64,000 bases of DNA from an uncultured Frankiaceae bacterium (lineage in GTDB: Bacteria; Actinomycetota; Actinomycetes; JAFAQI01). The translations under genes and the position numbers were made by a program. The notes under the pieces were generated by a model. That model did not search any database. It saw only the letters and a program-made list of their open reading frames with translations, and was not told the DNA's origin. The DNA lies in the NCBI GenBank assembly GCA_964395425.1, contig CAYNDD010000001.1, positions 63 through 64,062 of the forward strand. The letters are read 5' to 3'. Below are positions 39,215 to 54,861 of this stretch, piece after piece (positions within the stretch are counted from its first letter, which is position 1; every line of letters starts with the position of its first letter).

Positions 39215-39238
39215 GCCATAGATAACCTGGTCTATGGC
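39215..39238. promoter_or_regulatory. 8-N8-8 inverted repeat GCCATAGA-taacctgg-TCTATGGC between the divergent hspR-like and hsp20 genes; candidate operator. A CACATGTG palindrome lies 25 nt upstream.
   Basis: Read directly from the sequence. It sits in an AT-rich patch of the divergent promoter region. It does not match the canonical HAIR consensus CTTGAGT-N7-ACTCAAG. Confidence 0.4.
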
Positions 39239-39266
39239 CCTACCTGGAGCATCACGAGAGGAGACG

Positions 39267-39713: not shown

Positions 39714-39727
39714 GCGGGTGATGCGCG

Positions 39728-40036
39728 ATGCGAACCCAGACCCTCGACGGCGACCGGTTGGACTGCGCGCGCAGTACCAACGAGCAGTTCCTCGACCTCA
39801 TCTGCCGCGACGTTGAGTTGTTGCGCGCCGAGTTTGACGCCATCATCACCGCGCAATGGCCTGGCTCGCCTGCGGGTCGGCCAGGCTGCGGCGGGTTGAG
39901 GTCTTGGCGCCCGCAGAACTCCCTTCGCGGCGCTATCAGCCGCGCCAATCCGAGGCCAACCGGACCACCGATCCTGCATCGACTGACGGGGTGGCCACGC
40001 CCGCCGCCGACTGAACGCCGCTGTTGCGGCCGTTAG
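39728..40036 (+). CDS. Hypothetical protein (102 aa) downstream of hsp20.
   Basis: ORF only. The C-terminal half is low-complexity and Pro/Arg-rich. Confidence 0.25.
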   Translation: MRTQTLDGDRLDCARSTNEQFLDLICRDVELLRAEFDAIITAQWPGSPAGRPGCGGLRSWRPQNSLRGAISRANPRPTGPPILHRLTGWPRPPPTERRCCGR

Positions 40037-40169
40037 CCCTAGCAGCTCAGTTCTGGCATCAGTCCGACGTGACGCACGCGCAGCACCGACGTTGTGCCGT
40101 TGTGTTCGGAGGTCTCATTGCCGGACCGTGGCCTCGTACCACTTGGGGTCTCCAGTGCGCTCCGCGCAG

Positions 40170-40469
40170 GACTTCCTATTCCTCACCACCCGAGGCCCGC
40201 ATCCGATGCGCGGGAACTTCGGCCGCGACGTCCTCAAAGCCGCCACCGGCAGAGCCGGGCTGGGGGACCGGCACATCACCTGGCTCACCCTGCGGCACAC
40301 CGCCGCATCCCTCATGTTCGACGCCGGAATGACCATCTTCGAAGTCCAACACCGCCTCGGCCACAAAAGCCCGACCATGACCGCCGAGGTCGACACCCAC
40401 CTCATGCGCGAACGATTCAACGAAGGCCGCACCCGACTGGAGACCTACATGAGTGAGCATCGGGATTAG
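40170..40469 (+). pseudogene. Tyrosine recombinase / phage integrase C-terminal fragment, truncated and with the catalytic Tyr replaced.
   Basis: FLFLTTRGPHPMRGNFGRDVLKAATGRAGLG...LRHTAASLMFDAGMTIFEVQHRLGHKSPTMT aligns to the box II region of integrases (LRHT...HRLGH). The expected catalytic Y in the ...YTHL motif is D (EVDTHL). No N-terminal or core-binding domain is present. Confidence 0.6.
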
Positions 40470-40544
40470 CAGCCTCGGGGCACCTGTGACACCCATCATC
40501 CCGATATCCCCACTGAGAGGGTTTAACTGGAGTAGCATTGTCCA

Positions 40545-41348
40545 ATGGCTGCCGGTATCTCATCGACATCTAGGTCAGATCTCGCCCGTCTTACCGGTCG
40601 CGGTCAGCGGTTCATCGTGGTCGCGGACGCCGAGCGCGAGCTTGGATTGGATCGTGAGGGTGCTCGCCGGCGGCTTGTTCGGTGGGCGGAGCAAGGCTGG
40701 CTGCGCCGGGTTCGCCGCGATCTGTATATCCCGGTGCCTGTCGACGCAGAGCACCCTGAGTCATGGGGCGCCGATCCGGTGGTGCTCGCCGATGAGGTGT
40801 GGGGACCGTGTTACGTCTCGGGCTGGACAGCGGCGAACCACTGGGGTCTGAGCGAGCAGAGCTTCCGTACCACGGTGATCAGGACCACCAGACGTGTCCG
40901 GCAATCCACCCAACGATTGTTGGACAATGAATTTCTCCTCGCACACGTCGCGCCGGAGAACATGACTTGGGGACTACGTCGTGAGTGGCGAGACGAGAGG
41001 CGGATCCAGTTCGCCGACCCAGCGAGGACCCTCGTCGACATGCTTGACGATCCCGCGCTCGGCGGCGGCGTTCGATTGGTAACCGAGTGCCTTGGTGCCT
41101 ACCTCGAGAGCGAGGATGTCGGGGCCCTGATAAGCGCTGCGGATCGGCTGGGGAATCGTGCGGTATTCAAGCGGCTCGGTTACCTCGCGGAACAGATCGG
41201 CGCTGAGGAGCACATCCTCGACGCGAGTGAGGCTCGGCTGTCGCAAGGCTTCGCGTTGCTCGACCCGACCCAGTCAACCGGAGGCTCTCGCTCACGACGG
41301 TGGCGGATCGTGGCGAATGTTCAGGTCGACGCGACCGAGCCGTCATGA
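40545..41348 (+). CDS. abiEi: AbiEi family antitoxin / transcriptional regulator (type IV TA, abortive infection).
   Basis: N-terminal wHTH: SDLARLTGRGQRFIVVADAERELGLDREGARRRLVRWAEQGWLRRVRRDLY. The C-terminal domain matches AbiEi_4 architecture. Paired with a DUF1814 toxin gene. Confidence 0.7.
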   Translation: MAAGISSTSRSDLARLTGRGQRFIVVADAERELGLDREGARRRLVRWAEQGWLRRVRRDLYIPVPVDAEHPESWGADPVVLADEVWGPCYVSGWTAANHWGLSEQSFRTTVIRTTRRVRQSTQRLLDNEFLLAHVAPENMTWGLRREWRDERRIQFADPARTLVDMLDDPALGGGVRLVTECLGAYLESEDVGALISAADRLGNRAVFKRLGYLAEQIGAEEHILDASEARLSQGFALLDPTQSTGGSRSRRWRIVANVQVDATEPS

Positions 41349-42316
41349 TCCCTGCCCGCGAGGTGCTCGCACTGCGCACCGAGTGGTCGCTTCGTGCCGA
41401 TGTCATCGAGAAGGACTGGGCCCTGGGATGGGTGCTCGCAGGAATCGCGGCGCACCCGCAATTGTCAACGTGGATCTTCAAAGGCGGGACATGCCTGCGC
41501 AAGTGTTTTTACGAGACCTACAGGTTCTCCGAGGACCTTGACTTCACCGTCGTCGGGGATGGACCGGAAGAGCCCGAAGAAATCATCCCGATCTTCCGGG
41601 AGGTGGCCAGTTGGCTCGCCGATGAAGCCGGTCTCGAGATGCAGATCGACGACCGATCGTTCATTCGACGACGCAACCTGCAAGGCGTGTCCACAACGCT
41701 CGGACGGGTGGCCTACCGGGGGCCGTCAAATCCCCTGACGATGACGACCCCACCAAAGCTGAAGATCGACCTGACCTCCGATGAACTGATCGTGAACCGA
41801 CCAGTTCGACGCGGCGTGATGCACCCGTACTCCGACGCACCACAGCCTCTCGCAGCGATCAACTGCTATTCGATCGTCGATCTGTTAGCCGAGAAACTAC
41901 GCGCGTTGGCGCAACGCTGCAGGCCGCGTGATCTGTACGACGTCGTGTTTCTGTTCCGTCACCCCGACCTGCTCGGGCGCGCGCCGGCCGTCGCTAGTTC
42001 GCTTGCACGCAAGTGCACCCACGTTGGCATCGATCCGCCGACACTGGCCAGCATTCATGCAACGCCTTACCGGGCCGAGGTGGAGACAGAGTGGGCCAAC
42101 ATGCTCGATCATCAGCTTCCGAGCCTGCCGGCGTTCGGTCACGTGTGGGCAGCCTTGGAGGAGCTATTCGGTTGGCTCACAGGACAGATCGCGCTGCCAA
42201 GCCTGCCCCGCGCCGAGTCCAGCGGTCTCACCGACTGGCGCGCGCCACGGTCGATGACTTCCTGGCGCACCGGAGCACCTCTTGAGCTGATCCGCTTCGC
42301 TGGCGCCAACCGCTAA
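41345..42316 (+). CDS. abiEii: AbiEii/AbiGii family nucleotidyltransferase toxin (DUF1814).
   Basis: Hallmark motif FKGGTCLRKCFYETYRFSEDLDFTV (KGGTAL...RFSEDiD). ATGA overlap with abiEi. Confidence 0.8.
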   Translation: MIPAREVLALRTEWSLRADVIEKDWALGWVLAGIAAHPQLSTWIFKGGTCLRKCFYETYRFSEDLDFTVVGDGPEEPEEIIPIFREVASWLADEAGLEMQIDDRSFIRRRNLQGVSTTLGRVAYRGPSNPLTMTTPPKLKIDLTSDELIVNRPVRRGVMHPYSDAPQPLAAINCYSIVDLLAEKLRALAQRCRPRDLYDVVFLFRHPDLLGRAPAVASSLARKCTHVGIDPPTLASIHATPYRAEVETEWANMLDHQLPSLPAFGHVWAALEELFGWLTGQIALPSLPRAESSGLTDWRAPRSMTSWRTGAPLELIRFAGANR

Positions 42317-42522
42317 AGGTCGAGATCGACTACCGACCTGAGACCGGCCGAGCCGGTCGCAGGATCGTGGAGCCCTACTCGTTTCGCCGCACGAGAGACG
42401 GCAACATTGTTCTGCTCGTCATCAACCATCACGGACAGCTGCGCTCCTATCGCACGGACCGTATTGCGGCGGTCTCCGTCACTCGGGATGCATACCGACC
42501 ACGACGCCAGGTCGAGTTCTAG
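42286..42522 (+). pseudogene. Start-less WYL-domain-like fragment immediately downstream of abiEii.
   Basis: Frame +2 relative to abiEii reads (TGA)ADPLRWRQPLKVEIDYRPETGRAGRRIVEPYSFRRTRDGNIVLLVINHHGQLRSYRTDRIAAVSVT. This follows the WYL pattern: xIxYxxxxGxxxxRxVEPYxLxxxxGxWYLxAxxxxxxxxRxFRxDRI. There is no ATG/GTG near its 5' end and no HTH N-domain. Confidence 0.45.
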
Positions 42523-42863
42523 AACCCGGCTTGCCGATCTCGGTGGTAGTCGAGCCCTGGCCCCGGACGCCCAACCTGTCGGATACGCGGACGTCTGGTG
42601 AAAATTCGCGCCGCTGGGCAACGCAGTCCACACGCACGCCGTGGGTGCATTCACCGCAGCCATGGCCGACAGGTACCGCGTCGTCGCCGCTGTCCTGCTG
42701 GTCGCTGCGGCCGGGGTCGGGGAGGGACTTCGACACCCCGCTCGATGGCTCGTGCCGTCAGGCAAGACCGCCATTACGACTGAGGGCGGGTGAGCCGAAG
42801 ACCAGTCGTAGCGGCGGCGGCAGTGGAGGCGTGGACAGTATTCGTCGATCACGGAGCTATAAA

Positions 42864-42897
42864 ACCAGGGTCGGCCTAGGGTCGCGCCCTCGGGACA
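42864..42897 (+). promoter_or_regulatory. Copy 1 of a conserved 34-nt element, ACCAGGGTCGGCCTAGGGTCGCGCCCTCGGGACA, containing tandem GGGTCG half-sites 11 bp apart. It lies 31 nt upstream of the membrane-protein gene.
   Basis: Near-identical copy at 47694-47728 (one indel, three mismatches), in the same orientation and at the same distance from an ATG. Confidence 0.5.
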
Positions 42898-42927
42898 TTC
42901 CGATTGGATTGCCATTGGCTGTGACCC

Positions 42928-43680
42928 ATGGACAGCTCGATCGATTTCGCCAGTCTCAGCAACTCACTCACAGCCGATCCTTCCGATGGTGTCGAGCGGA
43001 TCCATGCGGGTGCGAAGACGCGGTCCCGGCTGCTTGCTATCTCCTTGCCGATTGCCTCCGGGTTGTACGTCGCCGCTGTAGCTCTGAACCCGAAGGGCAC
43101 CGATCAGGTCATTACGAGCATGGCCACGGCGGCCACCCTCCTGTCGATTGCGGGGAAGCACACGACTCAGCTCTACATCTCGGGCGCCCTGACGGTCCTC
43201 GCACTCGGCGCCCTGGCGATCGCATATGCCGCTATCGCGACGCTGGCGAGCAGACGCGGCGCCGGCCTCGCCACGGTCGCCGCAGTCATCGGGATAGTCG
43301 CCAACTTCAGCGGTGCTGTCTACAACGTTCTGGTCGGATTCAACCTCGCCGCTGCGGCCTCGGCACCGATATCGCGTGAGGCAGCTGCTCGGTTCCTGGT
43401 CACAACCTTCGACTCTGGATTCGCGACGGCGTTCTCTTATGTCTATTTCGTTGGCATATACCTTGCGCCGATCCTGATGGGAATCGCCTTGTGGCGTGGC
43501 CGAAGCGTGCCCCGTTGGCTCGCGATCTTCTTCATCCTCGCTCTGGAGGTCGCTCAACAAGCACCAGCCAAGGGCGTTGTTGCGGCCGCCTACACGGTGC
43601 CTTTCATGGTCGTGATGGTGATTCTCGCCACCCGGATATGGCGCTCGTCAGCGCAAGAGCGCAGTGAGCTCTCGTCGTGA
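42928..43680 (+). CDS. Integral membrane protein, about 6 TMS (DUF4386-like), function unknown.
   Basis: 250-aa ORF with six long hydrophobic segments. Its 3' end overlaps the 3' end of the convergent LAL regulator gene by about 33 nt. Confidence 0.55.
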   Translation: MDSSIDFASLSNSLTADPSDGVERIHAGAKTRSRLLAISLPIASGLYVAAVALNPKGTDQVITSMATAATLLSIAGKHTTQLYISGALTVLALGALAIAYAAIATLASRRGAGLATVAAVIGIVANFSGAVYNVLVGFNLAAAASAPISREAAARFLVTTFDSGFATAFSYVYFVGIYLAPILMGIALWRGRSVPRWLAIFFILALEVAQQAPAKGVVAAAYTVPFMVVMVILATRIWRSSAQERSELSS

Positions 43681-46347
43681 GGTGATGTCGAGCTTCATGT
43701 AGCTATTGCGGAGGTGGTATTCAACGGTCTTCACGGACAGGTAGAGCCGGCTGGCCACCTCCCGATTGGTCAGGCCGGTAGCGACGAGTCGGGCGACGGC
43801 GAGCTCGGCGCGGCTCAGGCCGAGGATGGTTGCTGGGCTGGCGGTCGCTGCGCTCACTCGTAAGGTGGCAAGCTCCTCCGCACACGCCTGAACGTAGGGA
43901 TCTGCGCCCATCGCTGAGAAGAAGCGATGCGCGCGCTCCAGCTGTGTGATGGCTGCTGCTGGATTACCCGTCTGGTGCAGGTGTCGGCCGTGATGAAGCC
44001 CTAAGAGTGCATGTTCAAAGGGCATCGACACCTGCGCCTCAATCGCATGCGCCGCAACGAAGGCCTGATCCGCTTGAGTGTCGTTGCCGCGGGCTGCGGC
44101 GAGATTGCCGCGGCAGCGTGCGATGGACACCGCTGCCGAGGCCAGACCGTCGTCAGGGATGGCGTTCTCGAACTCCTCAAGCGCTGATTCGGCCTCGTCA
44201 AAGCGACCTAGTCCGATCAGCGCATCGACCTCGGTCGACCTCCAGTTGAAGACGCCGGGTCGGCCCCCGACGCCCAGCAGGTTGGTCGCGCGGATCCGCT
44301 CGGCCGCGACGAGGACCCCTGGCAGGTCGGTTCGCGATGCTGCGAGAGCCACGGCGGCTGTTCCTGATGCGGCCACGGGGAGAACAAGCGGAAGCCGCTC
44401 AGCGGCCGCCCTCGCGGCAGCGACATGCAGCTGTGCAGCGTCCCACTGGCCGCGGCAGGCCAGGACTTGCGCTGCCCGACCATGTGCCCGAGCCAGGTCG
44501 ACTGGCCGATCATTGTCCTGCGCCAACGACGTCGCGAGCTGGGCGTGCGCCACCGCCGCGTCCCAGTCGCCGCGACGGAAGTGGGCGTCGCTCAGTGCCG
44601 CTAAGCACGGCACCGGATAAGTGGACGGCAACCCCGCCTGCAGGCGCGCCGCGGCGACGCCGAGGTCGGCGATCGCCCCGGCGAGGTCATCCGAGTACAC
44701 CTTGACGATGCCGCGCATGATCAGGGCGTCAGTGGAAGTGAGCGGCACCTCGTTGCCAGCGGCGGGAAGGAAGCTCAGTACGGCAAACCCTTCCGGGCTG
44801 CGGCCGTCGGCCGCGAACGCATAGGCCTGCCCGGTACGCGCCATCGCACGCAACGCTGAACCCTCGACCGTGCCGGCCACCGCACGGTCGGCCCAGACGA
44901 GCGCTTCGTCGGGCCGACCGGAGATCACCATCCAGTTCGTCAACGATGTGGCAGCACGCGCCCCGATATCAGGCTCGGCCACCGGATCGTGGCCGCGCCA
45001 GGCGGCCAACAGACGGTCCTCGGCAGTGAGTGAACCCGTGAAGACCTCCAGCAGCCCAACCAGCGCGTCACGACGAGCGCTCGACACCTGGCAAGACTCA
45101 AGGACCCTCGCCGCCGCCAACGTGTCAGCCGCGTTGAGCAGGATCGCCGCCGCGTCGAGCAAGCGACGCTCCCGGTCAGCCGCACCGGGCGACAGGGCAG
45201 CAGCCTGCTCGATCGCCCAGGCAGCCGCAGCCGAGTCACCGGCCGGCGAGGAGGCGGAGGCAGACGCTTCGAGTTCGGCAGCGAGCGCCTCATCAGGTCC
45301 CACTGTCGCCGCAACCAAGTGCGCGAGCCTGACGCGCCCGGCAACGAGGCCAGCAGCTCGGGCATGCAGCTCGCGACGGCGCGTTGCGGACAGATCAGCG
45401 TAGATCGCGGCCCGGTACAACGGGTGAGCAAAACTCGCCTCGGACCGCAGCGGTCCTTCGGTCAACAGGCCAGCCACGACCGCGTCATCCATCTCGGGCT
45501 GTGCATCAGCGAGCTGCGCCACGGTCGCGATCGCCGAGAGCAATCCGTGCTGACCAACCACCGATGCTGCCCCCAGGAAGGCCTGAGTCGCTGACGAGAG
45601 TGCAGCGACGCGGGCCAGGATGACAGCGGACAGTTCACGCGGCGCCGGCAGGTCACCCTCCCCGGCACGGTTGAGACCTGCGACGCCGATCTCGTCGAGC
45701 AACGCCCGGCAATACAGCGCGTTGCCCCCGGCGTGGACCAACAAGCGCGACGCACCCTGAGCCGACAACGATCCCAGCCCGAGCCGGCTGGCCAGCTCGC
45801 TGAGGTCATCCGCGCTGAGCCCGCCCAGCCTGATCTGAGTCACCCGAGGATCCCCAGCGACGAACCGGGCCCAGCCGGGATCGACCACCTCACCAATTCG
45901 CGTCGACACGATGGTCAGGACTCGATCTGCCCGCAGCCGCCGGAGCGCGAACAGCACGGCACGTGACGATGGCCGGTCAGCCCATTGCAGGTCGTCGATG
46001 CTCAGCACTGCCACGCGCTCGTCGGCTTGCAGGTCGTCGAGCCGGGCCAGCAGCTGCGCCCCGACAGCCATCGGGTCGATCCCCGGATCCGTCGCCCCAG
46101 GCGTGAGTTGGTCGATGACCCCGTAGGAGAGCAGCACCTCCTCTTCGTCGCCGCCAGCCTCGAGGACGACCGCATCCGTCAGTGAACCCAGGAAGCGAGC
46201 GAGCAGGCTCGACTTGCCCGATCCCGGGTCGCCCTCGACATAGACGACCTGCGGGTGACCTTCTCGCGCCGCAGCCAGCCTGTCGTCCAGAACGTGGAGT
46301 TCGGGCAGCCGCCCAACGAAGTCGGCTGGGGCACTCACAACACTCAC
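43648..46347 (-). CDS. Large ATP-binding LuxR-family (LAL) regulator: N-terminal AAA/P-loop NTPase, helical TPR-like middle, C-terminal LuxR HTH.
   Basis: Walker A VVYVEGDPGSGKSSLLARFLG and Walker B VLSIDDLQWAD. About 500 aa of Ala/Leu-rich helical repeats. C-terminal LSRAELAVARLVATGLTNREVASRLYLSVKTVEYHLRNSYMKLDITSRREL. Likely GTG start at 46347 (VSVVSAPADFVGR). Confidence 0.8.
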   Translation of the reverse strand: MSVVSAPADFVGRLPELHVLDDRLAAAREGHPQVVYVEGDPGSGKSSLLARFLGSLTDAVVLEAGGDEEEVLLSYGVIDQLTPGATDPGIDPMAVGAQLLARLDDLQADERVAVLSIDDLQWADRPSSRAVLFALRRLRADRVLTIVSTRIGEVVDPGWARFVAGDPRVTQIRLGGLSADDLSELASRLGLGSLSAQGASRLLVHAGGNALYCRALLDEIGVAGLNRAGEGDLPAPRELSAVILARVAALSSATQAFLGAASVVGQHGLLSAIATVAQLADAQPEMDDAVVAGLLTEGPLRSEASFAHPLYRAAIYADLSATRRRELHARAAGLVAGRVRLAHLVAATVGPDEALAAELEASASASSPAGDSAAAAWAIEQAAALSPGAADRERRLLDAAAILLNAADTLAAARVLESCQVSSARRDALVGLLEVFTGSLTAEDRLLAAWRGHDPVAEPDIGARAATSLTNWMVISGRPDEALVWADRAVAGTVEGSALRAMARTGQAYAFAADGRSPEGFAVLSFLPAAGNEVPLTSTDALIMRGIVKVYSDDLAGAIADLGVAAARLQAGLPSTYPVPCLAALSDAHFRRGDWDAAVAHAQLATSLAQDNDRPVDLARAHGRAAQVLACRGQWDAAQLHVAAARAAAERLPLVLPVAASGTAAVALAASRTDLPGVLVAAERIRATNLLGVGGRPGVFNWRSTEVDALIGLGRFDEAESALEEFENAIPDDGLASAAVSIARCRGNLAAARGNDTQADQAFVAAHAIEAQVSMPFEHALLGLHHGRHLHQTGNPAAAITQLERAHRFFSAMGADPYVQACAEELATLRVSAATASPATILGLSRAELAVARLVATGLTNREVASRLYLSVKTVEYHLRNSYMKLDITSRRELTALLR

Positions 46348-46532
46348 CTGCCGACGCTCTCGTGCAGGACTATTCTCGCGCGTACCGCTCGGACCCTGCG
46401 GGAAGCACAAGCGTACTGATCTCAGCCATCGAGGTGCGGCCGCCAGCCGACGCGGTCGCGATCGGTGAGCACCGGCAAGGGACGATCGTGACCGCCAGCC
46501 GAGGCACGCCGGGCGAATCAGTTCGGTGGCGC

Positions 46533-47705
46533 ATGCTCGCGATCGTCAGCTTGGGTGTCGTCGCACTCACGTTGAACTGGTTCGACATCGCCACTGCGTT
46601 CCCGCCCATCGGCGCGGAGTTCAAGGTCGGGCTCGGGTCACTGAGCTTCCTGATCTCGCTGTTCATCGTCGGTTACGGGCTCGCGCACCTACCTGCAGGC
46701 ACGCTCGCCAAGGCCATCGGGATGAAGAAGGTTCTCGTCCTCGGGTTGACGGTGCAGGGAGTCGCCGGGATCATGTCCGGGCTGTCCTACAACTTCACCG
46801 AGCTCGAGCTCTTCCGCATTCTCAGTGGAATCGGCGGTTCCCTTTTCGCCACCGTCGGCTTCTCCGCAGTCGTCGTGTGGTTCCGCGGCAAGGACGTCAC
46901 CCTCGCGCTCGGGATCTTCGGTGGCGCCGCCTTCAGCGTCGGCGCCGCCTTCGCTCTCTATGTATGGGTCTACCTGCAACGCGACACGAGCTGGCACGCA
47001 TCGTTGATCATCGCCGGCGTCATCGAGCTGGTCGTGGTGGTCGCAACGATCGTCGTTTTCCGGGTTCCGGCTGGTGCCGCTCCGCTGGGTGGCGCCCGGT
47101 TCGACCGGGCCGCCATGCGCGCGTCACTCGCAAGCAGGGACCTGTGGATCTACGGCGTCGCGCTGCTCGGGGGCTACGGCGCCTACTTCACCGTCTCTCA
47201 GCTGTTCTCCGCCTACGCCACTACCGACCGGCACTTGGACCCATCGACCGGCGGGCTGTTGTCGGCGCTGATCGTGCTCGCCGGGATCCCGGGCAGCCTG
47301 CTCGGTGGCTACTGGGCTGACCGCAGCCGCCACCTGCGCGTCTTCATCGTCGGACCCCTGATCGCGGTCGCCGCGCTGCTGGCCCTGATCCCCGCCGTGC
47401 CGACCGGTGCGCTCTGGGTCATCGGGATCGGGATCGGCTTCTTCACCATCTTCGGATTCGCCGGCTGGTCGGCGGCACCAGCTCGCGTGGCCAACATCGA
47501 ACCCGACTACATCGCCGCCGCAACCGGCCTGATGCTCACCCTGGCTGCCATCGGTGGCTTCTTCATCCCGATCATCTTCGGGCACATCGTGCCGCACCAC
47601 GGCTTCACCGCCGGCTGGATCTTCCTTGCCATCGTGTCCTTGGCGTTCGCCCTGGTTGGCCTCGCTGGCCGCAACCCGCCCGATCGGTGCAGAACCAAGG
47701 GTTGA
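46533..47705 (+). CDS. MFS transporter (12-TMS).
   Basis: Hydrophobic 12-TMS profile. Divergent from the LAL regulator gene. ATG 46533 is chosen over the long upstream ORF extension. Confidence 0.7.
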   Translation: MLAIVSLGVVALTLNWFDIATAFPPIGAEFKVGLGSLSFLISLFIVGYGLAHLPAGTLAKAIGMKKVLVLGLTVQGVAGIMSGLSYNFTELELFRILSGIGGSLFATVGFSAVVVWFRGKDVTLALGIFGGAAFSVGAAFALYVWVYLQRDTSWHASLIIAGVIELVVVVATIVVFRVPAGAAPLGGARFDRAAMRASLASRDLWIYGVALLGGYGAYFTVSQLFSAYATTDRHLDPSTGGLLSALIVLAGIPGSLLGGYWADRSRHLRVFIVGPLIAVAALLALIPAVPTGALWVIGIGIGFFTIFGFAGWSAAPARVANIEPDYIAAATGLMLTLAAIGGFFIPIIFGHIVPHHGFTAGWIFLAIVSLAFALVGLAGRNPPDRCRTKG

Positions 47706-47728
47706 CCTAGGGTCGCGCCCTGGGGACA
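47694..47728 (+). promoter_or_regulatory. Copy 2 of the 34-nt GGGTCG-direct-repeat element, ACCAAGGGTTGACCTAGGGTCGCGCCCTGGGGACA. It overlaps the last codons of the MFS gene and lies 31 nt upstream of a small ORF / DUF4260-mmpL.
   Basis: See copy 1. Includes a TTGACC hexamer. Confidence 0.5.
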
Positions 47729-47758
47729 ACAGCGGCCCAGTCCCGTTCGATGTGAGTC

Positions 47759-47965
47759 ATGGGCACATCGAACGCAACGAGCCAACCGATCAGGCTCCTG
47801 GTCGACGTCATCCGAACACCCGACGGGCGCCTCGAAGGCCGCATCTGCCCGGGCTCCTCCGACGCGGGACACGACTTTTCCGGCGTCCTCGAGTTGCTCA
47901 AGGTGCTCGAAGACCTCCTCGACGCCGACTCTGCTGCCGGTGCATCCGAAAGCCACGGAAAATGA
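47759..47965 (+). CDS. Candidate small protein (68 aa) positioned like the membrane-protein gene relative to the conserved upstream element.
   Basis: ORF only. Its stop overlaps the DUF4260 start (ATGA). Support comes from the conserved spacing to the 34-nt element. Confidence 0.25.
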   Translation: MGTSNATSQPIRLLVDVIRTPDGRLEGRICPGSSDAGHDFSGVLELLKVLEDLLDADSAAGASESHGK

Positions 47966-48348
47966 CGACCGGGCGACCGTTGTGGTGGCTTCGAGCTGAG
48001 GGTCTCGTCCTTCTTGTCACCGCGTTGGCTCTCTACGGGTCGACCCACCAGCACTGGTGGCTCGTACCCACCGCCATTCTGCTGCCCGACCTGCTGATGG
48101 CCGGCTATCTCGGCGGGACCACCGTCGGAGCGGCGGCCTACAACCTCGCTCACGCCTACCCGCTTCCGGCCGGCCTGGCATTGATCGGGATCGGCCGGCA
48201 CGAGCCGCTCGTATTGGCGCTCGGATTGATCTGGCTTGCCCACATCGGCGTGGACCGCGCCATGGGCTACGGCCTGAAGTACGACGACCACTTCCAGCAC
48301 ACCCACCTCGGCCAGATCGGCCACTCCCAGAACGAGGCGATGTCATGA
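47962..48348 (+). CDS. DUF4260 family small membrane protein.
   Basis: WWLVPTAILLPDLLMAGYLGGTTVGAAAYNLAHAYPLPAGLALIG...IWLAHIGVDRAMGYGLKYDDHFQHTHLG matches the DUF4260 signature (HIGxDRxLGYGLKY...THLG). Confidence 0.7.
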   Translation: MTTGRPLWWLRAEGLVLLVTALALYGSTHQHWWLVPTAILLPDLLMAGYLGGTTVGAAAYNLAHAYPLPAGLALIGIGRHEPLVLALGLIWLAHIGVDRAMGYGLKYDDHFQHTHLGQIGHSQNEAMS

Positions 48349-50585
48349 CCAAGACCGCGAACAACGCATCCGCGACGCCTCGCCCGACGTTTGAGGCGTG
48401 GGGCCACCTGCTGTATCACCGTCGCCGCCTCGTCCTCATCATCGCCGCGCTCGCTGTCGTGTTCGCAGGCGTGTGGGGGACCGGCGTGTTCGCCCACCTT
48501 CAGACTGCCGGCGGCTACACCGCACCGCACAGCCAGAGCCAACGTGAGGAGAGCCTCGCGACGCAGGCCTTCGGGCGCAACGGCGGCGACGTCGCGGTGC
48601 TGTACTCGAGCAAGACCTTGACGACCGCATCGCCAGCATTCAAGTCCGCGGTCACTGCGACGCTCGCCAAGCTGCCGCACGATCGGGTCGAGTCGGTGGC
48701 GACGTACTGGTCGACCGGCTCGTCGCAGTTCGTCAGCGCCAGCGGGCACCAGACGTACGCCGTGATCGAGCTCACCGGCGCCGGCGACACCGGACGCATC
48801 GCGAGCTACAACGCGATCAAGGACTCGCTGTCCGCGCCAGGGCTGACGACCCAGGTCGGCGGAGTGATCCCCACCGAGTCCGCGATCAACACCCAGGTCA
48901 GCTCCAACATCGGCCGGGCCGAAGGCCTGTCGTTGCCGATCCTGCTGATCCTCCTGCTCATCATCTTCGGCAGCCTCGCCGCCGCCAGCCTGCCGCTGGC
49001 GATCGGAATCGTGGGCATCCTCGGATCATTCACCGCTCTCCGGCTGCTCACCGAGGTGACATCCGTCTCGAACTACTCGGTCAACATCACCACCATCCTC
49101 GGGCTCGGGCTCGGAATCGACTACGGGCTGTTCATGGTCACCCGGTACCGCGAAGAGCTGCACCGACAGGCCACCGTCGAAGATGCCGTCGCCCGGACCA
49201 TCGCCACCGCCGGCCGTACCGTCGTCGTGTCCGGGATCACGGTCGCGGTCGCCCTCGGCGCGCTGATGCTGTTCCCGGAGACCTTTCTCCGGTCGATGGG
49301 CTACGGCGGAGTCGCGACCGTTCTCGTCGACATGATCGCCGCGCTGACCATCATGCCGGCGCTGCTCGCCGTGCTCGGACCCAACGTCAACGCGTTGCGG
49401 ATCCGCCGTTCGGTGCAGCGTGCACCGGTCGCTGAGCAGGAGGGCGGCTTCTACCGGCTCGCCACCCGCGTCATGCGCCGGCCGGCCGTCTACGCGGTCG
49501 TGATCGTGGTGGCGCTGCTCGCGCTCGCCGCGCCGCTGTTGCACGTCAGCTGGGGCGGCGTCGACGCCACCGCGCTTCCGGCCGGCTCGGCACCGCGGAC
49601 CGTGACCGAGGCGCTGAACCACGACTTCCCCGGCAACCCGACGGCACCAATCGAAGCCGTCGTGAGCTTCCCGGGACCGATCGCCGGCTCACCCGCCCGA
49701 ACCGCCGAGCTGACAACGTACGTCACCCGGCTCGGGAGCGTTCCCGGCGTCAGCCACGCACAGCAGACAGGCATCCACGGCAACGACGCCCGGATCGACC
49801 TCAGCTATGACGCGAGCCTCAACTCACCGGCAGCTCGCAGCCTCGTCGCCCAGGTCCGTGATGTGTCGCCACCCGCGGGAGCGACGTCGTCCGTCGGTGG
49901 CCAGACCGCCGACCTCGTCGACGAGCTGTCCAGCCTCGGACACACCCTGCCGTGGATGGCGTTGGTGGTCCTGCTGGCGACGTTCGTGATGCTGTTCCTC
50001 GCCTTCGGCTCCGTGGTGCTGCCGGTCAAGGCGATTATCATGAACCTGTTGTCGCTCTCGGCGATGTACGGCGCGATCGTGCTGATCTTCCAGGACGGAC
50101 ATCTGTCCCGCCTGCTGCACTTCACCTCCAACGGCACCATCAGCCCGACCACGCCGATCCTGATGTTCGCGATCATGTTCGGGCTCTCGATGGACTACGA
50201 GGTGTTCCTGCTGTCGCGGATCCGCGAGCGTTATGACGTCACCGGCGACAACACCGCCGCGATCGCCAGCGGTCTGCAGCGGACCGGAGGAGTCATCACC
50301 AGCGCCGCACTACTGCTCCTGATCGTGGTCGGTGCGTTCTCCGCCTCCGGTGTGACCTTCATCAAGCTGCTCGGCGTCGGCATGATCATCGCGCTGATCA
50401 TCGACGCCACCATCGTCCGGATCCTGCTCGTGCCCGCGACCATGCGGCTGCTCGGCGACAAGAACTGGTGGGCACCGAAGCCACTCCGTGGCCTGTACGC
50501 CCGGTACGGCATCCACGAGGAGAGCGAGTCCGCGCTGGCCGACGTGGACCTCACGCCGGCAGTCGCCGAGCCGCTGCCGGTCTAG
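48345..50585 (+). CDS. MMPL family (RND-superfamily) membrane transporter.
   Basis: 746 aa. Two 6-TMS bundles with intervening extracytoplasmic domains. MMPL-like GxxxDYxxF regions (GLGIDYGLFMV, GLSMDYEVFLL). ATGA overlap with the DUF4260 gene. Confidence 0.8.
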   Translation: MTKTANNASATPRPTFEAWGHLLYHRRRLVLIIAALAVVFAGVWGTGVFAHLQTAGGYTAPHSQSQREESLATQAFGRNGGDVAVLYSSKTLTTASPAFKSAVTATLAKLPHDRVESVATYWSTGSSQFVSASGHQTYAVIELTGAGDTGRIASYNAIKDSLSAPGLTTQVGGVIPTESAINTQVSSNIGRAEGLSLPILLILLLIIFGSLAAASLPLAIGIVGILGSFTALRLLTEVTSVSNYSVNITTILGLGLGIDYGLFMVTRYREELHRQATVEDAVARTIATAGRTVVVSGITVAVALGALMLFPETFLRSMGYGGVATVLVDMIAALTIMPALLAVLGPNVNALRIRRSVQRAPVAEQEGGFYRLATRVMRRPAVYAVVIVVALLALAAPLLHVSWGGVDATALPAGSAPRTVTEALNHDFPGNPTAPIEAVVSFPGPIAGSPARTAELTTYVTRLGSVPGVSHAQQTGIHGNDARIDLSYDASLNSPAARSLVAQVRDVSPPAGATSSVGGQTADLVDELSSLGHTLPWMALVVLLATFVMLFLAFGSVVLPVKAIIMNLLSLSAMYGAIVLIFQDGHLSRLLHFTSNGTISPTTPILMFAIMFGLSMDYEVFLLSRIRERYDVTGDNTAAIASGLQRTGGVITSAALLLLIVVGAFSASGVTFIKLLGVGMIIALIIDATIVRILLVPATMRLLGDKNWWAPKPLRGLYARYGIHEESESALADVDLTPAVAEPLPV

Positions 50586-50622
50586 ACACCCGATGTTCGC
50601 AGCTAAGAACCAGGAGCACGCC

Positions 50623-51582
50623 ATGAAGCTCGACACGCTCGAAGCAGTACAGCTGGGCGGGACCACACAGTGGATCCGCGTTCGTGGCACCGATGCCGCC
50701 AACCCGGTTCTGCTGCTGATCCAACAAGGCCCCGGCCTGCCGATGCTCAACGACGCCAGCCGCTTCGACCGGCTGCTGGGTCTGGAAGAAGACTTCACCG
50801 TCGTCTACTGGGACCAGCGCGGCTGCGGCCGCTCACTGCGCAGACCCCAGGACCGAACTGACATCAGTACGGAACGGATGGTGGCTGACACCATCTCCTT
50901 GCTCGAGCTTCTCCACGACCGCTACCACCGACACACCTATGTGGCCGGGTTCTCCTTCGGCGCGACCGTCGGCGCGTACGCAGCGGCCCAGCGTCCCGAC
51001 CTCGTCGCGACCCTGGTCGCGGTCGGCATGGACATCGACGGCACCGCGGCTGGCAACGCCGCCTACCACTTCGCGCTTGACACTGCCCGTGAGCGTGGCA
51101 ACCGGCGGGCGATCCGGCAGCTCGAAGCGATCGGCCCACCGCCACACCTCGACGGGAAGCAGTTCGCCACCCGGGTCCGGTGGGCGACCACCTTCGGAGG
51201 CGTCTCGACCAACGAGACATACGGCAGCCTGGTGCGCGGATTGCTCGCCAGCCTGATCCGATCCTCCGACTACTCAGCCGGTGACGTCCTGCGCACCGTG
51301 CGTGGTGTCACCGCGACACAGGCCGCGCTGCTGCCCGAACTCGCCAGCATGGACCTGGTTCGTGACCTACCCCGGATTGACGTGCCCGTGATCATGGCGC
51401 AGGGCCGGCACGACCACGTCGCGCCCGGTGACGCCGCACAGCGGTACTTCGACGCGCTCACCGCACCGAGCAAGCAGCTCGTCTGGTTCGAGAACTCAGC
51501 GCACACACCGCAACTCGAGGAACCGGAGAGGTTCCGCAACCTGCTCATGTCAGCCCGAGCCCGCCAGCTCGCCACCGCCTGA
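50623..51582 (+). CDS. Alpha/beta hydrolase (proline iminopeptidase-like).
   Basis: GFSFGA nucleophile elbow and WDQRGCGRS motif, typical of the prolyl aminopeptidase/epoxide-hydrolase-like subfamily. Confidence 0.75.
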   Translation: MKLDTLEAVQLGGTTQWIRVRGTDAANPVLLLIQQGPGLPMLNDASRFDRLLGLEEDFTVVYWDQRGCGRSLRRPQDRTDISTERMVADTISLLELLHDRYHRHTYVAGFSFGATVGAYAAAQRPDLVATLVAVGMDIDGTAAGNAAYHFALDTARERGNRRAIRQLEAIGPPPHLDGKQFATRVRWATTFGGVSTNETYGSLVRGLLASLIRSSDYSAGDVLRTVRGVTATQAALLPELASMDLVRDLPRIDVPVIMAQGRHDHVAPGDAAQRYFDALTAPSKQLVWFENSAHTPQLEEPERFRNLLMSARARQLATA

Positions 51583-51592
51583 CCCGCAGTCC

Positions 51593-51613
51593 GCTACTTC
51601 GCTACTTCGCTAC
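51593..51613. repeat. Short tandem repeat (GCTACTTC) x2.6 in the intergenic leader.
   Basis: Read directly: ccGCTACTTCGCTACTTCGCTACgcg. Confidence 0.6.
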
Positions 51614-51634
51614 GCGACCCGACGGGAACACGAC

Positions 51635-52615
51635 ATGAGCACAGGCGCAACCTGGATGCTGTACGGCGCCGCCGGCTACACCGGCGCACTCATCGCCCAA
51701 CACGCACTCGACCAGGGCCACCACCCCATACTCGCCGGACGCAACGCGTCGGCGCTGTCAGCCCTAGCGGCCAAGCTCGACGTGCCATACCGGGTCCTGA
51801 GCCTCGACGACCGAGCCGCACTCAGCCCTGCGTTTGCCGATGTGGACCTGGTTCTTAATGCTGCCGGCCCGTTCCTGCACACCGCGATGCCGCTTGCCGA
51901 GGCCTGCCTCGCCGCCGACGTGCACTACCTCGATATCAGCAATGAGCTTCAAGTCTTCCGCGCCCTCTACGACCTCAACCCGCGCGCCCAGAACGCCGGC
52001 GTCGCGATCATCCCTGGCGTCGGGTTCGGTGTTGTCGCCACCAACTGTCTCGCACGCTACGTCAGTGACGCCGTCGGCGGCGCGACGCACCTCGAGGTCG
52101 CGAGCAAAGCCGCGACAGCAGAAGCTGGGCCGGGTGTCGCCGCCACGAGGCAAGTGAGTCTCCCGTTCGGTGGCTGGGTTCGCCGCAACGGTGGGCTCGA
52201 GGCGCTTGCGCTCGGATCAGGCATCACCGCGATCAGCCTGCCGGACGGAACGTGCACGGTGATGCCACTGCCCACCGGTGACCTGGAGGCCGCCTTCCAC
52301 GCCACCGAGGCGCCCAACATCACCGCATACGCGGCCATCCCCACCGCTGACGAACCGCAGAGTCTCCGGTCACATGGCTGGGCACGAGCCACCAGTGCCG
52401 ACGGCGCGACCGCCCAAGCCTGGCTCGAGACCGGTGAGTCGTACGCCTTCACCGCGGCCGCCAGCGTCCGCGCTGTCGAGGAGACGTTGAGCCGGTCGTT
52501 GCGTGGATCGTTCAGCCCCGCCGCAGCATTCGGTGCCGAGTTCGCGTTCACCATCGACCACACAACCCGGATCGAAGCACTCGCCGCACAGCCCGTGCTG
52601 ACGACCGGGATCTAA
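51635..52615 (+). CDS. Saccharopine dehydrogenase NADP-binding domain protein (enoyl-reductase-like).
   Basis: N-terminal WMLYGAAGYTGALIAQHA Rossmann motif. Confidence 0.7.
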   Translation: MSTGATWMLYGAAGYTGALIAQHALDQGHHPILAGRNASALSALAAKLDVPYRVLSLDDRAALSPAFADVDLVLNAAGPFLHTAMPLAEACLAADVHYLDISNELQVFRALYDLNPRAQNAGVAIIPGVGFGVVATNCLARYVSDAVGGATHLEVASKAATAEAGPGVAATRQVSLPFGGWVRRNGGLEALALGSGITAISLPDGTCTVMPLPTGDLEAAFHATEAPNITAYAAIPTADEPQSLRSHGWARATSADGATAQAWLETGESYAFTAAASVRAVEETLSRSLRGSFSPAAAFGAEFAFTIDHTTRIEALAAQPVLTTGI

Positions 52616-52655
52616 GACCCCGAAACCACAAGCCTCAACAAGGAAGGCACACATC

Positions 52656-53612
52656 ATGTCGCACGTCATCGTGGGAGCAGGAACCGTCGGTCAGGCGACC
52701 GCACTGGTTCTCGCCGACCAAGGACACCAGGTTCGTCTCCTCTCACGTCGAGGACAAGGTCCCGACCACCCCGGCATCGAGAACCTGGCAGTCGACGCCA
52801 CCGATGCCGACGCCTTGACGCACGCGAGTGAGGGCGCGGCTGCTCTCTATAACTGTGCGAGCCCGCGTTCATACGCGCAGTGGGCGAGCGAGTGGCCGCC
52901 GATGGCCGCCGGAATCCTCGCTGCCGCCGAACGATCCGGAGCAGTGCTCGTCACGCTGTCCAACCTCTACAGCTACGGGCCGGTCGATGCACCGATGACC
53001 GAGGACATGCCAGCCGCATCGACAGGGAAGAAGGGCCGCATCCGCGCCGGCATGTGGACCGACGCTTACGCCGCCCACCAGGCAGGACGGATCCATGCCG
53101 CCGAAGCCCGGGCGTCGGACTACTTCGGCCCCGGGTTCACCGACACCGCCACCATGGGCAGTCGCACCGTGCCCCTCGTTCTGAGCGGTCGAACCGTCCG
53201 GGTGATCGGCGACCCAGACCTTCCTCACACCTGGACCTACGTCGACGACGTCGCGAGCACCCTGGCCACGCTCGGCAGCAACGAAAGGGCCTGGGGCAAG
53301 ATCTGGCACGTGCCGAGCGGCCCGCCGCGCAGCCAGCGCGAGATGATCACTGCGTTCGCCGAGGCCGCTGGAGTAGCGACCCCCAAGGTGAGCACCATCC
53401 CAAACTGGTCGATGCGCGCGATTGGCCTGATCTCACCCGTCGTGCGTGAGCTCGGTGAGGTGCGCTATCAGTTCACGGCACCGTTCGTCATGGATTCCTC
53501 CGCGTTCACCACAGCCTTCGGCCTCGACGCCACACCGCTCGACGAGGCCGCGGCAGCTACCGTCGCCTGGTGGCAAGACCGCAGCCGGACCCGTCCAGCA
53601 GTGGCGGCATGA
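52656..53612 (+). CDS. NAD-dependent epimerase/dehydratase family protein.
   Basis: VIVGAGTVGQATALVLADQGHQVRLLSRR N-terminal Rossmann fold. Extended-SDR architecture. Confidence 0.75.
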   Translation: MSHVIVGAGTVGQATALVLADQGHQVRLLSRRGQGPDHPGIENLAVDATDADALTHASEGAAALYNCASPRSYAQWASEWPPMAAGILAAAERSGAVLVTLSNLYSYGPVDAPMTEDMPAASTGKKGRIRAGMWTDAYAAHQAGRIHAAEARASDYFGPGFTDTATMGSRTVPLVLSGRTVRVIGDPDLPHTWTYVDDVASTLATLGSNERAWGKIWHVPSGPPRSQREMITAFAEAAGVATPKVSTIPNWSMRAIGLISPVVRELGEVRYQFTAPFVMDSSAFTTAFGLDATPLDEAAAATVAWWQDRSRTRPAVAA

Positions 53613-54340
53613 CCACAAAGCCAGTGCTTTCCAGTAGCTCGCGAACGATCGGAATGATCGGAGGCATGAGCTGGGAAAGCACCGCGGAGTACTACCGCCT
53701 CGCCAACGTCCTGACCCGCGAACGACTCGGCGGCCTGCATTCAGCTCGGATCGTGCTCGACTCCGTGGACTTCGCGGACATCGAAGCACTTCAAGCCTCC
53801 GGCCAATGGGACGAGGCCGGCCAGGTCTTGGCCGGGGCAGCACAACGCCTCGAGGCCGCCGGCGCTGACCTACTACTGATCTTCACCAACACCATGCACA
53901 TCGCAGCCGAGCAGGTGCAGGCCGCGGTTGGCATCCCGCTCCTTCACATCGCCGACGTCGCAGCATCCGCGGTGACCTCGGCTGGTCTCACGACAGTGGG
54001 ACTGCTCGGCACGGCGTTCACGATGGAGCAAACGTCATACCGCGACCGGATCGAAAGTCACGGACTGAAGCTGCTCGTCCCACCCGACGACGATCGTGCA
54101 GCCGTCCACCGCATCATCTACGACGAACTCTGCCTGGGAGTACTACGAGACGAATCCCGCCAGCTCTATCGGGACGTCATCGGTCGCCTGATCGCCGCCG
54201 GCGCGCAGGGCATCATCCTCGGTTGCACCGAGATCGAACTTCTCATCTCCGACGCGGACAGTGCTGTTCCGACCTTCCCCACGACGCGTCTCCACGTCAT
54301 GGCCGCCCTCGACGCTGCGCTCGCAACCGATGAAACATGA
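53609..54340 (+). CDS. Aspartate/glutamate/hydantoin racemase family protein.
   Basis: IGMIGGMSWESTAEYYR, LIFTNTMH and ILGCTEIELL motifs (Asp/Glu racemase two-Cys type). ATGA overlap with the epimerase gene. Confidence 0.8.
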   Translation: MTTKPVLSSSSRTIGMIGGMSWESTAEYYRLANVLTRERLGGLHSARIVLDSVDFADIEALQASGQWDEAGQVLAGAAQRLEAAGADLLLIFTNTMHIAAEQVQAAVGIPLLHIADVAASAVTSAGLTTVGLLGTAFTMEQTSYRDRIESHGLKLLVPPDDDRAAVHRIIYDELCLGVLRDESRQLYRDVIGRLIAAGAQGIILGCTEIELLISDADSAVPTFPTTRLHVMAALDAALATDET

Positions 54341-54639
54341 GACGACCAGACGGCCGCGCACGGTAGCGAACCCGCCGACAGGACGTTGCCTGCATGCACA
54401 TTTCGGAGACCCGCAGGGTTCCGTGGGCGCGCACGCGGCCAACTACCGCTCCCGCCTCCGTGGGCAATTGCGCAGGTTTACGAATGGAACGCCACGGCGC
54501 TGACCTGGGAAAACGTGTGCGGCCGAGCGCGCGAGCGCCGAGATTCGCGGATCAGCTGCGGGAAGGCTGTGGGAAGACCAGCTTCCGAAATGATCTTCGT
54601 TCAATCCAACAACCGGCTTTGACCTGCGGTTTCACAAAG

Positions 54640-54711
54640 TGCCCCCGGCAGGATTCGAACCTGCGCCACCGCCTCCGGAGGGCGGTGCTCTATCCCCTGA
54701 GCTACGGGGGC
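54640..54711 (-). tRNA. tRNA-Arg (anticodon CCG).
   Basis: Reverse complement reads GCCCCCGTAGCTCAGGGGATAGAGCACCGCCCTCCGGAGGCGGTGGCGCAGGTTCGAATCCTGCCGGGGGCA. Cloverleaf has a 7-bp acceptor, D-arm, anticodon loop CTCCGGA (CCG), and GGTTCGAATCC T-arm. No encoded CCA. Confidence 0.85.
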
Positions 54712-54861
54712 GGGGACCCGCCGAGGTTAGCAGCGGTACGCCGCCGGATGCGGGAAGGGACGGCGCCGCCGGATCGAGATCCGGAGTAGACGTTCCGGTT
54801 CGTAATAGGCTTCGCGGGAAGCGGAGCCGACACTCCGGTTAAGCGGTCAGGGGGACCGACG

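Follow-up and report, generated by a model that had tools for sequence, protein, structure and literature searches.

A tRNA-Arg(CCG)-proximal accessory segment of an uncultured actinomycete: a damaged AbiE cassette and an LAL-MmpL gene cluster

Do a tRNA gene, an integrase scar, and a toxin–antitoxin (TA) pair identify an integrated island? We address this question in a 64,000-nucleotide stretch of DNA from an uncultured bacterium (hereafter, the window), a high-GC actinomycete metagenome contig with a near-identical match in ENA (ERZ27245392, k141_1571550). Between an Hsp20 gene and tRNA-Arg(CCG), the window carries about 14.5 kb that include an integrase fragment, an AbiEi/AbiEii pair, and a cluster in which an LAL regulator accompanies an MFS transporter, a small gene of 68 codons (orf68), an MmpL-family transporter, and four enzyme genes. 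The original prediction, made from the letters alone, read this segment as an accessory, horizontally acquired island. Its accessory character stands, as does the presence of a real mobile relic in the form of the integrase fragment and the AbiE genes; a single tRNA-targeted island is the part that does not hold. We consider it probable that the span consists of two unrelated accessory modules in a variable zone 3' of an ancestral tRNA-Arg(CCG)/argS landmark. All components of the span belong to known kinds, and in actinomycetes the combination of tRNA, integrase scar, and TA pair is insufficient to call an island.

The reading that we favor can be laid out as follows. Module 1 (about 40.16–42.52 kb) would be the relic of a small integrase-borne defense cassette, in which a fixed deletion has deprived the toxin of its WYL domain. 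Module 2 would comprise a self-contained cluster (43.65–54.34 kb) together with a DUF4386-like gene at 42.93 kb that is preceded by the same control element. The LAL protein would bind this element, a palindrome, and switch on the operon; MmpL, together with tailoring enzymes, may export a hydrophobic or lipid metabolite. The cluster would travel or relocate as a block among soil actinomycetes, and in this species it would have ended beside the tRNA.

Separate recurrence of the two modules

We treat the modules as independent because the LAL block and the AbiE pair recur separately in relatives. A metagenome scan with MmpL as the query returned 80 loci, on contigs that carry no link to host marker genes or to ArgS contigs. 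LAL and MmpL genes occur together in 19 of the 80, most of them with MFS and orf68 as well, and hydrolase and reductase genes in 7. Identity to the window cluster is 66–75% (54–64% for orf68, about 71% for MFS), and none of the cluster-bearing metagenome loci holds AbiE, Hsp20, the tRNA, or argS. In the loci with the hydrolase–reductase pair (L091, L092, L102, L103, L116, L120, and L156; 66–75%), the pair follows MmpL at a distance of ~1–1.9 kb.

The closest cluster-bearing relative, L177, preserves the order of the window (LAL / MFS-orf68-MmpL-epimerase-racemase) at identities of 80% for LAL, 79% for MFS, 76% for orf68, 89% for MmpL, and 86% for both epimerase and racemase. There, the hydrolase–reductase pair is missing, DUF4260 is cut to its C-terminal 38 codons, and the epimerase and racemase genes adjoin MmpL. 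DNA homology to L177 runs from 43647, at the LAL stop codon, to 54370, 30 nt past the racemase stop codon, with breaks only at DUF4260 and the hydrolase–reductase pair; because the homology spans this interval, the boundaries of module 2 are fixed. Outside the cluster, the two sequences have in common only a 73-nt region around the control element (42862–42934). L177 has no DUF4386-like gene; a cupin gene lies behind the same element, and the flanks of the cluster in L177 (cupin, Tad pilus genes, alcohol dehydrogenase [ADH]) are unrelated to the window. The hydrolase–reductase pair is a variable insert of the cluster, and the epimerase–racemase pair is its 3' end.

Other relatives display further arrangements. 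The contig of the 84% LAL homolog reads LAL / MFS-small ORF (open reading frame)-MmpL-hydrolase, between flanks that are again unrelated, and in other relatives DUF4260 sits downstream of MmpL. The LAL-MFS pair is inverted in 70–73% homologs (L099, L103, L116, L128, L130, and L156), giving <MFS LAL> orf68> MmpL>; L177 and the P0243 contig have the orientation of the window. No inverted repeat was found flanking the LAL-MFS pair. Within the species, the arrangement of the whole span is invariant across 11 contigs from at least 4 samples.

These comparisons bear on an alternative that we judge unlikely: that the LAL-MmpL cluster is ancestral to a family-level lineage and has been inherited vertically, with rearrangement and loss, such that only the ~2.5-kb integrase/AbiE cassette is foreign. 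The identities of the LAL orthologs (86, 84, 83, 81, 80, 78, 77, 74% and lower) parallel those of ArgS (87, 85, 82, 81, and 80%) in relatives of which the closest are labeled “Mycobacteriales bacterium” metagenome-assembled genomes (MAGs) by NCBI. In addition, third-position GC content (GC3) and tetranucleotide usage of the cluster are host-like, its arrangement is fixed in all 11 species contigs, and it has no mobility genes inside. Set against this, the two series come from unlinked contigs and are not matched genome by genome, three near relatives hold the cluster in three different neighborhoods, and the relative with 85% ArgS identity lacks it at the tRNA. Moreover, many of the 70–73% LAL homologs are labeled Streptosporangiaceae (two members of the group by NCBI), which belong to an order other than Mycobacteriales and hint at inter-order exchange. 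As between horizontal transfer and intragenomic relocation, the parallel ArgS series argues for vertical descent with relocation, and the Streptosporangiaceae labels and changing neighborhoods argue for transfer.

The AbiE pair, in turn, recurs without the LAL-to-racemase block. Elsewhere, AbiEi and AbiEii-WYL pairs that are 60–69% identical adjoin IS21, an RHS gene, or an intact tyrosine integrase. Where the pair lies directly downstream of an intact integrase, order and orientation are those of the window, and the integrase is 35% identical to the window fragment. One such stretch (L171:1015-6227, on a 1-Mb contig) encodes an intact tyrosine integrase, AbiEi, and AbiEii-WYL, followed by an LmuB_C (Lamassu-type) gene and insertion sequence (IS) elements; it looks like a small defense islet.

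The integrase of the window retains ~100 C-terminal codons, which cover positions 91–166 of the 172 in the PF00589 model; matches to XerC/D-type NCBIfam models fall far under the cut-off. In an alignment with the intact L171 integrase and with XerD, the fragment begins past two catalytic elements, the box I Arg and the Lys region. Of the later motifs, LGH and the Arg of LRH survive, the His of HxxR is replaced by Leu, and the catalytic Tyr is replaced by Asp. No N-terminal remnant is present in any frame of 39600–40160, between Hsp20 and the fragment. The tyrosine integrase is dead, its catalytic R-K-H-R-H/W-Y set incomplete. Accordingly, what had been reported as an integrase scar is a genuine Phage_integrase C-terminal relic, one that belongs with the AbiE cassette, 12 kb off the tRNA.

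AbiEi is intact and of the same length as its homologs. It scores below the cut-off of Pfam AbiEi_4/AbiEi_1 and is 60–62% identical, over the full length, to the partners of AbiEii-WYL in L170–L172. The pair has the form of an AbiE type IV TA system: it is bicistronic, with a 4-nt gene overlap and the adjacency that defines the system; its nucleotidyltransferase (NTase) has an intact GG...DLD motif of the GG...DxD type; and it falls in the long-form subfamily (PDLC02317). It differs in that its toxin has lost the C-terminal WYL domain. The DUF1814 NTase family of AbiEii also includes the mycobacterial MenA-MenT relatives.

The toxin homologs explain the missing domain. The top 120 are all AbiEii, nearly all of 390–392 aa with a C-terminal WYL domain (PF08843+PF13280), and those aligned over the full query are 58–80% identical. 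More than 5000 homologs are found at E<=1e-30, the named ones being from Actinomycetota, Acidimicrobiales, Dehalococcoidia, and Armatimonadota MAGs. In the window, the frame ends in ...RFAGANR-TAA, short of the full-length toxin, and it is the +1 frame that carries the last 69 codons (LKVEIDYR...RRQVEF), up to 42522; DNA alignment with three homologs places a 1-nt deletion at ~42311–42313, AACCG[A]CT. When repaired, the toxin scores 129 bits for AbiEii, 29.1 bits for WYL (cut-off 21.8), and 414 bits for PADLOC PDLC02317 over residues 1–391. Because 11 contigs, drawn from at least 4 samples and two data sources, carry this truncated 323-aa ORF in identical form, the deletion is real and fixed rather than an assembly error. 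The “WYL remnant” that had been listed as a separate element is the toxin's own C-terminal domain, cut off by this deletion; a relic of a separate regulator gene is ruled out, the homologs being AbiEii-WYL fusions. A new fusion is ruled out as well, given the full-length PADLOC model and the WYL-DUF1814 fusion listed by Makarova et al. 2014 (PMC4012209). The AbiEii-WYL architecture is known but unstudied, and the window copy is damaged.

A phage or plasmid origin was considered and rejected, since integrase, AbiEii, and MmpL have only distant matches on phages and plasmids. Phage matches of the integrase fragment are limited to generic Firmicutes phage integrases (33–40%), the best plasmid match of AbiEii is to Rhizobium plasmids (44%), and viral contigs contain no close relative. 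Among plasmids there is no close MmpL either, the top match (48%) being a chromosome-sized Nonomuraea record.

The tRNA-Arg(CCG)/argS junction

Adjacency to the tRNA was one ground of the island reading. We scanned 80 genomes with 59–72% identical ArgS, among the matches listed, taking flanks of 10 kb. In 69 of these 80 actinomycete genomes, tRNA-Arg(CCG) lies divergently upstream of argS, at a distance of 150 nt to 8.8 kb; among loci whose 10-kb flank is complete, just 3 lack it. The same is true of five closer relatives, and the order argS-lysA-hom-thrC-thrB-rho follows the tRNA in most Actinomycetes sampled (L004–L083 and L164–L169). The linkage of tRNA-Arg(CCG) and argS is ancestral. Both sides of the tRNA vary in gene content. 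In the window, argS does not come directly after the tRNA: an MFS gene and a TetR gene intervene.

What lies next to the tRNA changes from relative to relative. In the closest readable one (GCA_035504215.1, ArgS 85%), 133 nt separate the tRNA from argS. The cluster is missing from the tRNA locus there, and the 3' side holds MDMPI, TetR, an Hsp20 gene, TrkA_C, and cydAB. We considered Hsp20 as a conserved left anchor and rejected it: this Hsp20, ~2.5 kb from the tRNA, is 29% identical to that of the window and is a paralog, and for this reason it defines no empty site. Relatives with ArgS at 80% and 77% each have different genes on the tRNA flank. L164 (ArgS 87%) keeps the MFS-TetR pair, and the tRNA 3' end is exactly where its 39-kb contig stops (L164:1-73); differences between strains, or a repeat at this place, may be the cause. 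Between tRNA and argS, relatives have nothing, the MFS-TetR pair, or a desaturase and a response regulator with or without phosphoenolpyruvate (PEP) mutase. The MFS-TetR pair, a second variable insert, is conserved only in L164, is absent or replaced in L165–L169, and has a core-like GC3 (0.89–0.93).

On the 3' side, we took the largest ORFs located up to 3.5 kb from the tRNA in 70 genomes, 121 in all; they match 128 Pfam families. The most frequent family is MFS (10 ORFs), 3 ORFs are large serine recombinases, and tyrosine integrases are not among the 25 commonest families of this set. The 3' flank of tRNA-Arg varies, yet it is no classical integrase hot spot. The tRNA-Arg(CCG)/argS junction is an ancient landmark. 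Both of its flanks differ in all lineages examined, and for the most part no integrase is present.

As for synteny, the segment is not at the locus in any relative with a readable flank, neither in those with ArgS at 77–85% nor in the 80 more distant genomes listed. All of 1–40 kb is equally missing from the flanks taken: among the matches listed, the 10 kb upstream of argS hold none of the window genes that precede 54.6 kb. The comparison therefore neither fixes the proposed left boundary at the integrase scar nor defines an empty site.

Two further checks had been proposed, for att-like repeats and for a compositional signature, and both went against the island. A blastn-short search of the tRNA and its flanks (54601–54730) against the 64-kb window returned 13 nt as the longest match (E 0.095); there is no tRNA-derived match near 40 kb, and the best ones elsewhere, of 12–13 nt, are at chance level. 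A search for direct and inverted repeats across 39–55.5 kb uncovered no long direct repeat joining ~40 kb to ~54.6 kb, and a 36-nt direct repeat, described below with the control element, was the one result that exceeded chance. In composition, the span is not distinct from its left flank: its tetranucleotide correlation to every other segment is 0.95–0.97, and its delta* values lie within the spread between other window segments. GC3 is 0.70–0.76 in AbiEi, AbiEii, the DUF4386-like gene, LAL, and the racemase gene, and 0.78–0.90 from MFS through the epimerase gene (0.75 in the short orf68). Elsewhere, it is 0.77–0.86 in the 30–40 kb flank, 0.70–0.78 in the 4–30 kb region, and 0.82–0.92 in the argS-thrB block. 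The 4–30 kb region, outside the span, deviates more from the core than the span does, and the only clear compositional step in the window is at about 55–57 kb. The span is neither uniform nor distinct in composition.

A single ~14.5-kb island, from AbiE to racemase, that integrated at the 3' end of tRNA-Arg(CCG) and whose att sites and integrase later decayed appears quite improbable to us. It would account for the racemase gene ending 298 nt from the tRNA 3' end, for the integrase fragment at the distal end, for the absence of all its genes from the locus in relatives with ArgS at 60–87% among the matches listed, and for the contig break of the closest relative at the tRNA; actinomycete integrative and conjugative elements (AICEs) are known to use tRNA-Arg genes (PMC3218068). 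On the other side stand the lack of any tRNA-derived repeat longer than 13 nt in 64 kb, the separate recurrence of block and AbiE pair, the rarity of tyrosine integrases at tRNA-Arg(CCG) in the 70 genomes, and the absence of conjugation, replication, and excision genes from the span. The contrast in GC3 between AbiE, DUF4386-like, and LAL genes (0.70–0.76) and MFS, DUF4260, MmpL, and hydrolase genes (0.82–0.90) likewise speaks against one unit, as does a span that as a whole cannot be distinguished from the 30–40 kb flank. Finally, the genes between the tRNA 5' side and argS vary too, which an integrase acting at the 3' end cannot explain.

The span resembles tRNA-associated islands and AICEs of the pSAM2 type in its position at the 3' side of a tRNA, its integrase relic, its TA cargo, and its absence from the locus in relatives with a readable flank. 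It differs in that att repeats, a working integrase or excisionase, and genes for replication or transfer are all missing, and in that its composition is not distinct; in a cargo of two modules with separate distributions; and in a tRNA that is variable on both sides even without integrases. There is no sign that tRNA-targeted site-specific recombination placed the cluster.

Several observations weigh against two independent modules. With the tRNA 3' end directly on one side and an integrase relic on the other, the segment has classical island geometry, and the L164 contig stops where it would be expected to if strains differ at this point. A single deletion at the Hsp20 border could have removed both the att site and the N-terminal part of the integrase, and with them the very evidence that was sought. 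In no relative found is there an empty Hsp20-tRNA junction or an Hsp20 gene beside the LAL cluster. The link between LAL and the palindrome consists of conserved proximity only. Lastly, the ArgS relatives are those among the matches listed, and closer genomes may exist.

The LAL-MmpL cluster and its palindromic element

Within module 2, the LAL protein combines a Walker A motif (GDPGSGKS, residues 39–46) with AAA_16 (54 bits), TPR repeats, and GerE (50 bits), as is characteristic of LAL regulators, and its gene is divergent from that of the MFS transporter. It shares with MalT, PikD, and AveR the length class (899 aa), the Walker-A ATPase, the TPR repeats, the GerE helix-turn-helix (HTH), and a position beside divergent presumed targets; it differs from them in that the presumed target is an export operon and the 23-bp site a predicted one. 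The intergenic gaps from orf68 to the racemase gene are -4, -4, 37, 52, 40, and -4 nt, DUF4260 overlapping each neighbor by 4 nt, and this spacing indicates that orf68 to racemase form one putative operon.

MmpL has two MMPL domains in its 746 aa, and its best model is MmpL3, at 451 bits against an equivalog cut-off of 1400. As in mycobacterial MmpL/MmpS loci (MmpL3, MmpS4-MmpL4), a small gene precedes it and lipid-type enzymes follow. Unlike MmpL3, it does not have a long C-terminal domain, and its score falls far short of the equivalog threshold; unlike MmpS4, orf68 is modeled as soluble and has no MmpS match; and the relatives bear Mycobacteriales and Streptosporangiaceae MAG labels and may lack mycolic acids. 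The enzymes (an esterase-type hydrolase, two NAD(P)-binding proteins, and a racemase) suggest, speculatively, the tailoring of a lipid or an amino-acid-containing amphiphile. Solved structures gave only marginal matches for the reductase-like and epimerase-like enzymes and were set aside as hints. No polyketide synthase (PKS), nonribosomal peptide synthetase (NRPS), or terpene core genes are present near the LAL cluster.

The control element came to light through a 36-nt direct repeat (42862–42897 and 47693–47728) in the repeat search. Its motif, CCTAGGGTC(R)C(R)CCCT(S)GGGACA, is an imperfect 8-3-8 palindrome of 23 nt, present in 2 exact copies in the window where 0 are expected by chance. Each copy stops 30 nt before an ATG: that of the DUF4386-like gene (copy 1) and that of orf68 (copy 2). 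In 27 metagenome loci (among L085–L156), the element recurs with up to 3 mismatches some 50 nt ahead of orf68, and it also precedes orf68 in L177, an epimerase-like gene in L128, and the cupin gene in L177. The conserved stretch covers ~75 nt, CAAAACAC-AGGGTCGAA-palindrome...CGCGTTGACT...ATG. A TAGGGT hexamer within it agrees with the actinomycete -10 pattern; a sigma-70 consensus scan found nothing at the element.

A known RNA is ruled out for the Rfam families, none of which matches the element. RNAalifold folds an 8-bp hairpin in which the pairs are invariant or changed on one side only, with no covariation or compensatory changes; the alignment neither supports nor excludes an RNA structure. 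We read the element as a candidate promoter or operator of the orf68-to-racemase operon. Judging by conserved proximity, the adjacent LAL protein, with its GerE HTH, is most likely the predicted binder. Because the DUF4386-like gene has the same element upstream as the orf68 operon, it is a putative regulon member of module 2.

The orf68 family comprises proteins of 58–76 aa with the core motif RLLLDI.R..DGRLEG.I...FSGVLELLKVLE, and its gene is always just upstream of an MmpL gene of the cluster's type. It has no match in Pfam (E<=1) or NCBIfam, and hence no match to MmpS. An exhaustive search yielded 78 small representatives (47–120 aa, E<=1e-3); in one of them (P0368), orf68 runs on into a C-terminal fragment of DUF4260. 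We also considered orf68 as a repeat unit of large proteins and rejected it, as the two long matches (a type IX secretion system [T9SS] repeat protein and a SUEL lectin) are compositional false positives. The AlphaFold model (pLDDT 79.5, ~90 in the core) has three strands and a helix (beta3-alpha), with no significant match in the PDB (best E 0.41). According to this model, orf68 is soluble, and because of this it would not be an MmpS.

Is the LAL-to-racemase block as a whole an undescribed relocatable “regulon cassette” of soil actinomycetes, with a family-specific 23-bp palindromic operator and orf68 as a new accessory or regulatory partner of an MmpL3-like exporter? In such a cassette, the operator would recruit other genes from lineage to lineage: the DUF4386-like gene in the window, a cupin gene in L177, and an epimerase-like gene in L128. 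We offer this as a tentative and rather doubtful proposal. The discovery value of the locus is modest, and lies in the conserved palindromic element and in an uncharacterized orf68 family tied to an MmpL exporter. This orf68-linked exporter is widespread in acid-soil and peat metagenomes.

Gene inventory and neighboring features

The inventory was checked by Pfam, NCBIfam, and PADLOC scans and against public gene calls (Table 1). Family scans and gene calls place the previously listed genes and the tRNA where they had been claimed, barring the corrections given here. Where two transporters had been counted beside LAL, the MFS transporter stands, and the other, a 250-aa ORF, encodes a membrane protein whose match to DUF4386 falls below the threshold. 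The 68-aa gene in front of DUF4260 is an addition to the earlier inventory. Public annotation further has a 200-aa ORF on the minus strand (42313–42915); since it overlaps the WYL-coding frame and is without a family match, it is probably a spurious call.

Table 1. Coordinates of the features discussed, by position in the window
Feature	Position	Strand	Evidence or remark
Hsp20	39234-39713	+	family scans
Tyrosine-integrase pseudogene fragment	40158-40469	+	within ORF 40092-40469; Pfam PF00589 37 bits
AbiEi antitoxin/regulator	40545-41348	+	intact, 267 aa; PADLOC PDLC02271 251 bits
AbiEii NTase part	41345-42316	+	323 aa, TAA stop at 42314-42316
AbiEii-WYL toxin gene including frameshifted WYL part	41345-42522	+	WYL (“WYL remnant”) 42314-42522
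Palindromic element, copy 1	42875-42897	+	CCTAGGGTCGCGCCCTCGGGACA
DUF4386-like membrane protein, 250 aa	42928-43680	+	Pfam DUF4386 E=2e-4, below cut-off
LAL regulator, 899 aa	43648-46347	-	AAA_16 + TPR + GerE
MFS transporter, 447 aa	46362-47705	+	Pfam MFS_1 114 bits
Palindromic element, copy 2	47706-47728	+	CCTAGGGTCGCGCCCTGGGGACA
orf68, 68 aa	47759-47965	+	gene call; no Pfam/NCBIfam match
DUF4260 membrane protein, 128 aa	47962-48348	+	Pfam PF14079 130 bits
MmpL-family RND transporter, 746 aa	48345-50585	+	Pfam MMPL PF03176 258 bits, 2 stretches
Alpha/beta-hydrolase	50623-51582	+	family scans
Sacchrp_dh / NAD-binding reductase-like	51635-52615	+	family scans
NAD-dependent epimerase/dehydratase-like	52656-53612	+	family scans
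YgeA-type broad-specificity Asp/Glu racemase	53609-54340	+	TIGR00035 217 bits (cut-off 93); PDB 3ojc, 5hqt
tRNA-Arg(CCG)	54639-54711	-	Rfam 70.8 bits; 3' end toward cluster
DHA2-type MFS efflux pump	54862-56334	+	between tRNA-Arg and argS
TetR regulator	56331-56963	+	between tRNA-Arg and argS

Left of the span, the window opens with a PAD_porph (agmatine-deiminase-type) gene (1–1143), followed by genes for a Dyp-type peroxidase and a Linocin_M18 encapsulin shell (1192–3110); the peroxidase/encapsulin pair is a cargo-shell operon of known type. A catabolic and transport run (3600–30200) has the lowest GC (0.60–0.64) and GC3 (0.70–0.78) in the window. Its genes encode an acyl-CoA dehydrogenase, amidohydrolases, an S15 peptidase, a branched-chain-type ABC transporter, GntR, a Baeyer-Villiger-type monooxygenase, ADH, a short-chain dehydrogenase/reductase (SDR), AtuA, two family-III CoA-transferases, an acyl-CoA ligase, and an aldehyde dehydrogenase. 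Closer to Hsp20, the minus strand carries an extracytoplasmic function (ECF) sigma factor and an RskA-type anti-sigma factor as a pair (35838–37200), and a plus-strand ORF (37013–37897) overlaps the sigma factor gene.

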